The notes beneath the pieces were generated by a model. The model was given only the letters and a program-made list of their open reading frames with translations. It did not search any database and had not been told where the DNA came from. A stretch of 64,000 nt of DNA from Octopus sinensis (Eukaryota): positions 112,530,001 through 112,594,000 of the forward strand of contig NC_042998.1 in the NCBI RefSeq assembly GCF_006345805.1. Direction: 5' to 3'. This document shows positions 1,687 through 32,250 of this stretch, piece by piece (within the stretch, counting starts at the first letter, position 1; each line of letters begins with the position of its first letter). Made by a program: the position numbers and the translations under genes.

Positions 1687-2053
1687 AAGGCGGCGAGCTG
1701 GCAGAAACGTTTGCACGCCGGGCGAAATGCGTAGCCGTATTTCGTCTGCCGTTACGTTCTGAGTTCAAATTCCGCCGAGGTCGACTTTGCCTTTCATCCT
1801 TTCGGGGTCGATAAATTAAGTACCAGTTACGCACTGGGGTCGATATAATCGACTTAATCCGTTTGTCTGTCCTTGTTTTTCCTCTCTGTGTTTAACCCCT
1901 TGTGGGTAGTAAAGAAATAGATATTCCGCGAGGTCGATTTTGCCTTTCAACCTTTCGGGGTCAATATTTTAAGTACCAGCGGCGTACCTTAGTCTATGTA
2001 ATCGACTGGCTCCCTCCCCCAATATTTCAGGCCTTGTGCCTATAGTAGAAAGT
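1687..2053 (+). mobile_element. tRNA-derived SINE family A (Deu/Nin-like core), dimeric copy with 18-bp TSD
   Basis: Head GGCGGCGAGCTGGCAGAA...GAGTTCAAATTCC contains a B-box. Core GCCTTTCATCCTTTCGGGGTCGATAAATTAAGTACC. Unit 1 ends ...GTAGTAAAGAAATAG (1920); unit 2 ends GGCCTTGTGCCTATAGTAGAAAG. TSD attattgtttt(a/g)tcgtct at 1669-1686 and 2054-2071. Confidence 0.9.
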
Positions 2054-2349
2054 ATTATTGTTTTGTCGTCTTACGATTGCAGTCACGCACAAAATGACAG
2101 CTTTCACATCCTGTTTCCTGACTGGGTAAAAACTATCAAACTTCAAACCTCTGTAACTTTTTTTTTAGATTTCTGGAACAAATGAATTAGACGCTGAGAA
2201 TTAGCGAGAAAAATTACATAAATACACCAAATTTGAAAATTTTTACTTAATTTAAAAATTTAAAAAAGTGCAACGAAACAAAATATCTAAATTTTCCATC
2301 AATGCAGTAGCGTATGATAAAACCAACTTTTGTGACTGAGACACACCAG

Positions 2350-3250
2350 TCTGAATAACTGACAACACCATGCTAAAAAGTGTGGATGCTAAAGATAACC
2401 TTGTTTAATAACGTTCGTGACCTAGGATGTCGTCGTCAGCTTTACATTATCAATTTACAAATATGCTTTCATGAAATGACCGTAACATGACAATAAATTT
2501 GACAACTGCACGTGGTGAAGATGCTTCAGAGCCCTTCACGACTGACACTTTTAGAAATAACGATGCTTCTTCCTACACTTTAGTCGACTTATTGCAATCG
2601 CCATGTTGACTGTATCGCAACTTCCACTAAATTCGTACTTACAGAAGGTCCTGTTGAAGGTGGACAACTAGCCCTTTCAAAATTGTTAAGATGAGATTCT
2701 TTCACAGATTGACAGTAGAGAAATTCCCTGATACCCTGGCAGTTTCTTTTTATCTTACTGAGTTGGATTATTGCGGTGTTCCAAATTCCGATGTAACATC
2801 ATTATAGCAACGGAATAGAAGGGCTTAGTGAGCTTCGAGGTAAGGCGAGGGCCGACAAACTTGTGCACCTCTTTTGGTTTGTTCTCAGATCCAGGGGTCT
2901 TGTCACTGGGAGAACACTTGTAACCGTCTTGATCCAACCCCTAGTAGAGATTTGAACAAGTAACATAATAGTCCTTGATTGTAGAAAGCGAGTTATTTCC
3001 TTATTCATAAATAGCAGTTGAAGATACTTGGAGATACTGCGAAAATGCTCTATCTTTCAGAAATCAGTTCCTTGTCAATCTGTCAATATTCGGCATTGGG
3101 AATAAACCAGGGTTGTAAGTAGCTCGCATGGCAACATAGAAAAATCTTGAACTTGTTACAGCCTGAATAAAATTGGTACTAATCTGCCTTTTTTACTCCA
3201 CAATGTGTCCTGTCTCAGCCGAAACTTTAGTTACGAGCTGCAATGAAAGC
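2350..3250 (-). mobile_element. Decayed RTE-clade LINE, reverse transcriptase region
   Basis: Minus-strand peptides 'KTPGSENKPKEVHKFVGPRLTSKLTKPF' (cf. KAPGxDGIPAEVYKxGGxxL), 'YQGISLLSICERI' (cf. NYRGISLLSIxGKI) and 'VSREGL'. Multiple stops. Confidence 0.7.
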
Positions 3251-4094
3251 AGCTCGCTGTATTATGTATTAACATATAACTATTGTTTTTTCATGCGAAT
3301 GATCTCTCTGGGTTTTTAATTTCAGTGAGGCATTTATTGTTCACGGAGTAGTATTTGGCAAAATATCGACATGAAATATATTCAGAAAGTTTAAATGAAA
3401 TATCTCATACAAAATGCATAGCCTGTTGTAACATTATTATAACTTAAGAAACTAATTAATATGTGATGGAAACGTATTTACTCATGCACTAGAGCAAGAA
3501 ATAAGCTTGACCTTTGATAATCAGCAATATTAATCAACAGGCAATCAGCTCTATTGATTTCTGAGTACGGAAGAAATTCTGAGTTATGTGGTGCATGCTT
3601 TTTCTCGTGTGTTTTAGTACTCCCTCTATTTCTTACCATCAGTCTCTTTTTCTCTCCCTTCTCTCTCTCTCTCTCTCTCTCTCTCTCTCTTCATGTAACT
3701 AGCTTATCCTGAAATACAGGTTCTACTTAAACTTTAGGTAAAGTACTAGTTCACATGATATCAGGACATGCCCACACACCAATGGACCTTTGTGACACAT
3801 GTTTATGGGCCAGCCTTCCTTCGAGTCCTGTACACTTTTGCCACGGAACTATCTGCAATTTGACCCACAGCTAACCATTTTAATAAGTACTACCACCCCA
3901 GGCCAAGGCAAACCTTGAAGTATTGGTGAACATATGTTTTAGCAAAGTGTCTTAACAGCGTGAATGAATTAGTCACCGTTGGGCACTGAATTCTCATATC
4001 AGTGTCAGTTTGCTTAAGGATTACTTCCTAAATTATGGTACACACCCACAAGCAATATTATACATGCAGAAACAAAACGAAGACGCCTTAATAT

Positions 4095-4258
4095 GATCTG
4101 TAGACCTGCTGGAAATAGCAGCCGACTCCGTCTTAAAAATGGTATTAGATAATGCAGTTTTAGATACAGCTGAAAGACGATGGAATGGTAATTTTGGATA
4201 CGCATTATAAACAGGTTTGCTTGATCAAGGTTGATCTGGAACCTAAACAACAACAACG
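4095..4258 (+). repeat. Dispersed repeat family D (SINE or LINE-tail-like, (CAA)n tail)
   Basis: GACCTGCTGGAAATAGCAGCC...CTAAACAACAAC. Related copies at about 6145-6360(+), 8385-8540(+), 8870-9045(+), 22680-22915(-), 29390-29565(+), 30620-30770(+), 33590-33730(-), 48525-48700(-), 59730-59925(+), 60195-60340(+) and 62030-62690(+). Confidence 0.7.
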
Positions 4259-29900: not shown

Positions 29901-29902
29901 TT

Positions 29903-30155
29903 GTGGAGGCGCGTGGCGTAGTGGTTAGGGTGTCAGCACCATGATCATAAAATTGTGGTTTCGATTCCTGGACCGGGCGACGCGTTGTGTTCTTGAGCAA
30001 AACACTTCATTTCACGTTGCTCCAGTCCACTCAGCTGGCAAAAATGAGTAATGCTGCGATGCACTGGCGCCCCTCCAGCTGGGGAACACATACGCCATAG
30101 AAACCGGGAAACTGAGCCCATGAGCCTGGCTAGGCTTTAAAAGGGCGCATTTATT
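29903..30155 (+). mobile_element. SINE family C, well preserved
   Basis: TGGCGTAGTGGTTAGGG A-box, GGTTTCGATTCC B-box and core TTGAGCAAAACACTT...CTCAGCTGGCAAAAATGAGTA. Confidence 0.85.
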
Positions 30156-30889
30156 TATTATCATCATTATCGCTGTTTCCTCCAGTTTCAACATCACCGT
30201 CAGCACTACTCCCATCTTCATCAACATGACCCTCACTACCACTGCAATTACCATCGTCGACATCACCGTCGCCTCAATCACAGTCATGGCTTAACTATTG
30301 TCTTTCACTTTCTGTGAGCTTCTACTTTTATTTATCGGAATAAATAGTTCCCCCGGGTATTTTAGTTTTAGAGATTACACAGCAACATAAGTATATATGT
30401 ACTGAAGCGAAATGAAGTATTCATACAAAGTAGAATAGATTAGAAGAGCAGAGTGATGTAAATATTGTAACAGAGCGGAGTGAAGTGTAGTTTAGTGTTG
30501 TGTTGTGTATTTGTAGTGTAATGGTTTCAAATTTTGGCACAGGGCCAGAAAATTTAGGGCTGGAGTATCGATAGACTGCTACTTTATTTTATTGATCTCG
30601 AAAGAATGGAAAACAAAATCACCCAAATTACATATTACCTGCTTAGAAATGATGGTATGGCGGGTGATGATATTGTGGAAAGGTTTTCTGAAAATAATGC
30701 TTAATGGTCATAGTAGGATTGTGCTTCATCATATATCCGTGCAGTGAGCAGGGACCGAAGAACAGAAACATTATCATCATCATCATCTTCCTAACATCAT
30801 CACCATCTTCAGTCTTGCCATTAGGGTGGAGAACGGTTGTGTGCTTTTTCTGCTATTATTTCTTCTCAATTCGAACTTTGTCATGAGAA

Positions 30890-32250
30890 GATCGATTGAC
30901 CAAGTGATCTTGAGCAATGCTTGAAAGTCCCAGCTAAAACTTGCAGATCTGTACTTTGATAACATCCCAATACTTTCAAAGCACACAAATGAGTTAGAGA
31001 TAATGATAATCTGTCTCGAAATAAATAGTCCTATAAGTTGTGTTGAGGGTCAGTTGTTAATAAAACCAAAGGTATGTGGATTAGGAGTATGAAAGTAAAT
31101 TCACTCAACAATAAATCAAACAAGTTCAACAAACACAAATCTTTGAGATCCTAAGTTGATATCTGTTGCAGATTTGGTATTGCATCCGTTGTATTACAAA
31201 AGTATTCATTCAATTAGGTCGGCAACATCTATTGACAAGTCAGGTCAGATATGGGGACATGCACCCTTGCAGCGAGCTGCTGCGTTCACGATTTGTCGAT
31301 ATAATCCTGAGTCCAAGGCGGCCAGCTGGCGAAATGCACGCCGGGCGAAATGCTTAGCGGTATTTCGTTTGCTATTACGTTCTGAGTTCAAATTCCGCCG
31401 AGGTCGACTTTGCCTTTCATCCTTTCGGGGTCGATTAAATAGGTACCAGTTGCACACTGGGGTCGATAAAATCGACTTAATCTGTTTGTTTGTCCTTGTT
31501 TGTCATCTCTGTGTTTAGCCCCTTGTGGGTAGTAAAGAAATAGGTATTTTGTTTTACATTCTGAGTTCAAATTCCGCCGAGGTCGACTTTGCCTTTCATC
31601 CATTCGGAGTCGATAAACTAAGTACCAGTTACGTACTGGGGTTGATCTAATCGACTGGCCACCTCCCCAAGAAATTTCAGGCCTTGTGCCTAGAGTAGAA
31701 AATAATATATTCGTGAGTCCTCCTGGCGACCAGTCAGTCCCCATCTTCGTGAGATATATCCTCATCTGCAGTCATCATGTGACATATGATCAACCAGCAC
31801 GTGCTGTCAAGCCGGCCGGATCCTCAGTGAAGAGAATAAAGTAAGCAGTGTCTATTGATATTGCAAACAAAGTCCACTTCTACAAAACTGTTGTCATGCC
31901 TTTAACCATCTACTGGTTATCATGCCTATTGCCATGCCTTTAACTATCTATTGGAAAATCACAACCAAAAGTATCACAAAGTTAGTAAGTGTTCCATCAA
32001 AGATATTTGCGAAGAATCTTCAAGATCACATACAGGACTAGTCTCACCTGTGAAAAACACTGCAAAAAGTTTTCAGCAAAATCAGATGCCGTCAAGTGCT
32101 ACAGGCAGTATCTTTCATTGCTTGGCAGGGCATATATATCGTGCATGCTAGACAGACAGTATGCTAACACGTCAATATGCTGGCAACCACAAAGTGGGAG
32201 AAGAAAGATACTCTGCAGGAACTACGTCTTACAGGGAGAGAGAAAAATAG
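30890..32250 (+). mobile_element. Decayed RTE-clade LINE interrupted by a SINE dimer
   Basis: Peptides 'FHQRYLRRIFKITY', 'LAGHIYR' and 'WQPQSGRRK' (cf. RTE FHQRCLRRIL, WxGHVxRM, WxPxxGxR). Confidence 0.7.
31315..31705 (+). mobile_element. SINE family A dimer with ~16-bp TSD
   Basis: Unit 1 has the Tx1-like tail, joined at ...AAAGAAATAG|GTATTT to unit 2 with tail 1. Flanks atataatcctgagtcc / atatattcgtgagtcc. Confidence 0.9.

Follow-up and report, generated by a model that had tools for sequence, protein, structure and literature searches.

Three arrays of short interspersed elements (SINEs) in a 64,000-nucleotide stretch of Octopus sinensis DNA (the window, to which position numbers refer) probably arose by site-specific self-nesting, driven by a lineage of long interspersed elements (LINEs) that targets the SINE itself, through a homologous and mostly invisible 5′ junction and with later local duplication. 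All three consist of one SINE family with a common head and body (positions 1 to ∼168, counted along the SINE consensus) and alternative tails. B tails end in GTAAAGAAATA and come as B1 (GGGTAGT) and B2 (GGGCAAT), and A-type tails comprise A1, A2 and a younger form, Y. An earlier, sequence-only reading of the window had described a dimer at 1687–2052 (+), a trimer at 13424–14021 (−) and a dimer at 31315–31701 (+), in which units with a Tx1-like tail run directly into headless units, and all three are present as it described. Its junctions were also recovered: GTATTT at 13797 and 31543/4, which in both cases is position 51 of the unit, ATATT at 1921 (near position 81–83) and AGAATC at 13614 (position 17). 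A single target-site duplication (TSD) encloses each dimer (Table 1), and none is evident around the trimer. The first unit of the 1687 dimer illustrates the layout, with a head, the shared body to about position 168 and a LINE-like tail ending in GTAAAGAAATAG.

The partner LINE, L361, was reached through a search for B tails without a SINE body. It is a 5,363-bp element with a zinc-knuckle open reading frame 1 (ORF1) and an ORF2 carrying an N-terminal apurinic/apyrimidinic endonuclease (APE) domain and a reverse transcriptase (RT; PF00098, PF03372 and PF00078 across the element). L361 sits between a SINE head (1–65) and SINE position 50/51, and the host array's own TSD surrounds the whole. 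The last ∼40 nt of the B tail align to its 3′ end, with a better match for B2, in which the final 16 nt are identical, than for B1. The 40 best matches to each end of L361 were 99–100% identical, and 20 of the 40 were fetched per end, using a 3′ query that held 8 flanking bases and a 5′ query that held no SINE bases. SINE 1–65/66 lay directly upstream of the LINE in 20/20 fetched 5′ ends, and the SINE resumed at 50/51 in 20/20 fetched 3′ ends. Because positions 50–56 are the same on both sides of the LINE in 16/16 paired copies while the host heads differ by 13% pairwise, each copy must be an insertion of its own, with a 16-bp TSD. The LINE thus enters between SINE positions 49 and 50, and it is 50–65 that become duplicated.

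An open-ended pattern for the LINE tail gave 156 matches. Among the first 100, 88 were on target by eye, not every one of them confirmed as a LINE; the remaining 12, when fetched, comprised 8 SINE copies, 2 older LINE relatives (82–85% identity) on target and 2 copies off target, so that 90/92 non-SINE tail matches among these first 100 were on target. On the 5′ side of the LINE, variants at 57–65 recur among copies and are absent on the 3′ side, which suggests that RNA-derived sequence overwrites the target. LINE-related contigs were present in all four other sequencing runs compared, and since the LINE family is so young the system may still be active. L361 likely belongs to the Tx1 clade within the L1/Tx1 group. 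The best PDB matches of its endonuclease are L1 endonuclease constructs, the Atlas clusters LINE-1 ORF2 and TX1 149 kDa tie at 0.96, and the best named match of an RT fragment is an Argonauta protein. A homolog search with an endonuclease fragment returned no matches.

To place these junctions in a wider context we combined exact pattern counts, used for all genome-wide figures, with a 1.264-Mb sample made up of the window and 120 evenly spaced 10-kb stretches, in which this dispersed SINE of 212–234 bp, with TSDs of ∼14–22 bp, accounts for 4.1% of bases. Genome-wide there are 132,833 exact B tail ends, of which 34,022 run straight into position 50/51 (0 for the reversed control) and 2,828 into position 17/18. 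Past the position-51 junction, 12,250 cases continue with a B-type body and 2,652 with a Y/A-type one. Within the sample a SINE unit adjoins 38/107 B tails on the 3′ side, 26 of them at position 51, and the junctions are thus far above the level expected by chance. A-type tails had a SINE next in 18/135 cases, mostly full heads past a gap. The insertion site is subfamily-specific: B1 tails meet 50/51 in 30/63 cases (28 by script, 2 by eye) and 17/18 in 0/63, and B2 tails meet 17/18 in 5/35 and 50/51 in 0/35. Arrays are polar, with B units first, and reach 10 units in fetched loci; among the first 100 junctions listed, sites are spread over 15 Mb of C1. The claim that the last unit always carries an A-type tail (tail 1) is true of the three window loci and fails beyond them, since 13/27 B-led sample arrays are all-B. 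In a comparison with other sequenced organisms, the B tail and the 184-bp junction were abundant in contigs of organism B (17–28 contigs per joint for the 184-bp back-joint) and scarce in those of organism C (0–1), a hint that B1 may have expanded in a burst within one lineage. No non-SINE partner at position 17/18 was found among the 100 matches listed out of 2,877, and all 100 had B-like tails; four 17/18 copies with the LINE-type ending were fetched, of which three are SINEs and the fourth (L403) resembles the SINE over no more than its final 39 nt. Separately, B1 copies occur in reverse orientation within SINEs at GGTACTT, the complement of about positions 130–137, with visible TSDs (L019, L170, L313 and others), a possible second hot spot.

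Two routes to such arrays had been put forward in the sequence-only reading, homing of the Tx1-like-tailed SINE into the heads of older family members and mobilization of the dimer as a unit. Nesting predicts a younger unit 1, and this is what the divergences show: among 66 complete arrays the body of the last unit was more diverged than that of unit 1 in 50 and less in 12 (0.073 vs 0.044, P=3×10−6). Loci L001–L030, picked by similarity to the window copy, were excluded from this and from the unit-distance, TSD/head-age and linkage statistics; L331–L360, picked as visible nests, were excluded from the latter three and included in the divergence comparison. Many arrays in these statistics come from exact-pattern searches, which biases them to well-preserved junctions. 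Classic nests also exist, in which the host head runs to about position 65 and is followed by a full B unit and then by the host again from 50/51, with 50–65 as TSD; the exact pattern has 135 matches, and some of these nests carry private variants in both TSD copies. Together with the LINE at the same site, the visible nests and older last units support homing, with the amendment that the hosts are not just copies with tail 1, as B copies are entered at least as often. For the two-LINE amplification cycle, also proposed, no partner LINE of the A and Y tails was identified.

Since the exact nest pattern has so few matches, most events would lack a visible 5′ junction, and the heads offer an indication of how this could come about. 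In arrays with an old last unit the head is a mosaic, in which positions 3–16 are older (0.110 vs 0.062), 17–49 slightly so and 53–62 donor-like. Unit 1 and the last unit share rare variants at 52–66 more often than permuted pairs do (5 vs 0.8). Under site-specific self-nesting, a B-tailed SINE would likely borrow the endonuclease and RT of the LINE lineage to enter pre-existing SINE copies. Roughly half of the B1 copies in the sample do have their tail joined to position 50/51, and the remaining sites are similar to it (GGTAT). The incoming cDNA is homologous to the host head, and its 5′ end would usually pair upstream of the cut, giving a product that consists of a head, a new body and tail, and the host remainder, within the host's old TSD. 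Every such event would leave a usable site, and repeated insertion would build polar arrays; the B2 subfamily appears to act likewise at position 17/18.

A more ambitious scheme, which we regard as possible but doubtful, closes the loop between LINE and SINE. The LINE would land in its own dependent SINE and also take its 5′ leader or promoter from it, and the RNA ends of SINE subfamilies would keep a few host-site nucleotides that steer priming. Every subfamily would in this way be led to a position of its own (50/51 or 17/18), where the head of the host is overwritten, in effect a self-targeting gene-conversion engine. A test for a 3′ RNA-templated tag did not establish one: downstream-only and upstream-only matches numbered 16 and 7 for B1 (P=0.09), and 7 and 9 for B2. 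In an observation of its own, at L339–L345 (G000:C1:194.22 Mb and 195.36 Mb) the SINE head 1–65 is repeated in tandem before a full B unit, with a 65-bp period, up to 5 copies and 97–100% identity; the end of the repeat unit is exactly the LINE 5′ junction position, and similar 64–66-bp spacings occur on C7, C9 and C18.

Several observations weigh against self-nesting in this form. The age of the head follows that of the last unit only weakly (rho 0.23, P=0.065), and because unit 1 carries the donor CCG at 63–65 in 19/19 dimers with a TCT last unit, the host TSD would usually have to be overwritten. The mosaic heads fit pairing of the cDNA end with a homologous host head, but we infer this homologous 5′ junction and do not see it. 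Visible nests (135) are ∼250-fold rarer than junctions (34,022), although the two patterns differ in stringency. TSD mismatch in Y-ended arrays (0.134) speaks for nesting in that it resembles that of Y monomers (0.149) and exceeds that of B1 monomers (0.068; P=0.003 vs B1), yet the fixed 14-nt TSD window may inflate the Y-type values, and within arrays TSD mismatch and last-unit divergence are uncorrelated (rho 0.09, P=0.52). In the 1687 dimer the head is young throughout and the junction is atypical. The LINE uses the B1 site even though its tail is nearer to that of B2. Its young family also postdates most arrays, so that the actual mobilizer would be an older relative. Finally, an empty orthologous allele was not recovered: contigs of the four other runs at window 1300–2400 were swamped by repeats and none spanned the locus.

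The main rival to self-nesting is template switching within a single RT event, which would start on any SINE RNA, halt near position 51 at a hairpin and switch to a B1 RNA at its 3′ end, yielding a full and a headless unit within one TSD in the manner of U6–L1 chimeras. This would explain why there is just one TSD, why the head is complete and why donor-type heads are frequent (the 45G/50C combination typical of B1 is found in 5/22 Y(TCT)-ended arrays and 0/17 Y(TCT) monomers; P=0.056), and the junction does lie at a predicted hairpin. It leaves unexplained why a LINE occupies this very DNA site and has a 16-bp TSD there, as well as the visible nests, the older last units, the host-like ages of the TSDs and the older head ends of arrays with old hosts. 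We consider it unlikely as the general route, but some dimers may have formed in this way, for example that at 1687, in which a young head is joined to an old host. Alternatively, GGTAT words might attract B1 wherever they occur, SINEs simply being rich in them: off-target B1 sites start GGTA(T) in the genomic target in most TSD-bearing copies (22–33 of 37 per position), as do positions 50–54, and 75 of the 331 GGTATTT words in the sample are inside SINEs. Because the other 256 words were used only 2 times, against ∼30 SINE junctions, the word by itself is insufficient; moreover the LINE accepts both C50 and G50 hosts and is ∼98% on target. An absence of SINE-specific targeting is accordingly the least probable of the alternatives.

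Dimers and multimers could instead be master genes, read through by RNA polymerase III and retroposed as units by way of the terminal tail. T runs in the B and Y majority sequences do not exceed 3, one headless B–Y dimer (L304) lies within a TSD, and array TSDs match the type of the last unit, all as this route would have it. Linkage between penultimate and last units across arrays is, however, absent (Mantel P=0.88 for 35 Y-ended and 0.26 for 30 B-ended arrays), last units are at least as diverse as monomers (0.142 vs 0.129 and 0.110 vs 0.093), and most 5′-truncated arrays lack an enclosing TSD (plausible in 3/14). The dimer as mobile unit is therefore disfavoured as the main route, and we think master multimers very unlikely. 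Local DNA duplication of the 184-bp segment between GTATTT microhomologies, by slippage or unequal crossing-over, has a different standing. Middle units of long arrays are closer to each other than background (0.066 vs 0.105), some being near-identical, and 8/29 adjacent middle pairs have at least 2 rare variants in common, against 0.5% expected; all-B dimers, on the other hand, are at background distance (0.101 vs 0.105, 23 pairs), and mixed B–Y and B–A arrays are impossible from one copy. The dimer distances and mixed arrays rule it out as the primary route, and that it produced most arrays is very unlikely, but it is kept as a secondary process. Some arrays thus likely grew by local duplication or multi-copy insertion, either of which could explain the near-identical middle units, and others by independent insertions. 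Set against the definition of a SINE satellite as at least 4 homogenized units, arrays here have up to 10 units, with some middle units near-identical and others at background distance.

By eye, the SINE head contains words that resemble the A and B boxes of RNA polymerase III promoters. ARAGORN found 0 tRNA genes and Rfam 0 matches at E≤5 on window 1650–2100, so neither points to a ribozyme or a clear tRNA parent. An RNA hairpin predicted for the head (z −1.8) has positions 50–63 as its 3′ arm, and there is covariation between positions 45 and 50 (T–G 267, T–A 106 and G–C 97; n=533 units), features that may matter for targeting. Octopuses are said to carry the tRNA-derived SINEs OK, OR1 and OR2, reportedly described by Ohshima and Okada in 1994 (cited in PMC4758252). 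By description these resemble the window SINE, which is likewise an abundant short element in an octopod genome and is possibly the same family.

Related elements occur nearby. A fragment of an L1/Tx1-group LINE at window 39599–41558 (+), with 48–61% amino acid identity to pieces of L361, ends in a B-like tail that adjoins a CTAT microsatellite, and similar tails run into CTAT repeats at window 37375–37416 and 42531–42572 (−) as well as at L141, L144, L220 and L240, which suggests a sister family that targets (CTAT)n. At L058 (G000:C5:50.00 Mb, minus strand) B-like tails are carried by two elements, and one of these also contains an ORF1-like frame with a zinc knuckle; a scan of this locus gave no RT match, and they are possibly ORF1-only elements. 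Two A1 SINEs at window 12275–12707 lie in opposite orientation with 40 bp between their heads and make up a long inverted repeat.

Table 1. SINE units, junction-site features and target-site duplications in the window
Feature	Position	Strand	Remark
Left TSD, 1.7-kb dimer	1669–1686	+	17/18 match to 2054–2071
Unit 1, 1.7-kb dimer, full-length B1 SINE	1687–1920	+	97% to B majority sequence
SINE positions 50–65 (site that the LINE duplicates in other copies)	1736–1751	+	Also 3′ arm of predicted head RNA hairpin; weak fold, whole-fragment z −1.8
Unit 2, 1.7-kb dimer, headless, older, A2/Y-tailed	1921–2052	+	Starts at about position 81–83, atypical junction; 85% to Y majority sequence
Right TSD, 1.7-kb dimer	2054–2071	+	Match to 1669–1686
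Trimer unit 1, full-length B1	13798–14021	-	
Trimer unit 2, B2-type tail (GGGCAAT)	13615–13797	-	Starts at position 51
Trimer unit 3, A1-tailed	13424–13614	-	Starts at position 17 (B2-type junction)
B monomer, un-nested	25337–25552	-	
Left TSD, 31.3-kb dimer	31299–31314	+	14/16 match to 31705–31720
Unit 1, 31.3-kb dimer, full-length B1	31315–31543	+	91%
Unit 2, 31.3-kb dimer, Y-tailed	31544–31701	+	Starts at position 51
Right TSD, 31.3-kb dimer	31705–31720	+	Match to 31299–31314
B1 monomer	37056–37279	+	Followed by GGTAG (off-target site like positions 50–54)

The usual picture of SINEs is one of passive LINE parasites, and here a LINE treats a SINE as a safe landing site, with roughly a quarter or more of the copies of one tail type in self-nested arrays. 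The system offers a testable case of a target-specific APE endonuclease acting on a 16-bp site, a natural collection of tens of thousands of putative homologous 5′ junctions for studies of second-strand synthesis in retrotransposition of elements that lack long terminal repeats (non-LTR), and a route from SINE to satellite. It also carries a warning for this genome, in which chimeric heads and arrays distort both the ages and the copy numbers of SINEs. The full-text literature searched, to which Repbase and subscription journals do not belong, held no description of the octopus system; supplementary octopus repeat libraries (for example PMC13282606) may hold the families.

Among known systems, squamate SINE-derived satellites consist of tandem SINE portions, are more uniform in longer arrays and, according to the text consulted, are subtelomeric and attributed to unequal recombination (PMC10702118). 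The octopus arrays differ in having one junction at tens of thousands of dispersed loci, with mixed subfamilies, that coincides with a LINE target. R2 elements have a restriction-like endonuclease, target the rRNA genes and integrate their 5′ ends with the help of homology. Co-transcription with the 28S rRNA target is described as strengthening R2 targeting (PMC4494074). Target sequence at the 5′ end of the RNA would likewise give seamless junctions here, a parallel that we infer. Xenopus Tx1L inserts into Tx1D, Keno into U2 genes, and Kibi and Koshi into microsatellites (PMC4494074); they have sequence-specific APE-type non-LTR insertion in common with the octopus LINE, but their targets, as given in that account, are not a dependent SINE.

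The closest published system in the sources available to us is that of the crocodilian Tx1-Mar LINEs, which prefer fixed positions in a Mariner DNA transposon, a preference that the SINEU elements share more weakly (13–90%); sequential tandem SINE insertions are described there, and some of the LINEs have SINE-like 5′ sequence (Kojima 2015, PMC4494074). The likeness lies in a Tx1 LINE at fixed positions in another mobile element, with SINEs following. As far as that account goes, the crocodilian elements have a Mariner target, heads derived from U1/U2 and a visible TSD between tandem copies, whereas the octopus elements insert into the head of the SINE itself, the SINE has its 3′ tail in common with the LINE, and a visible 5′ junction is the exception. 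The octopus system thus works like Tx1-Mar/SINEU but is no member of it, since it has no small nuclear RNA head, as the blank Rfam result indicates, and its target is the SINE itself.

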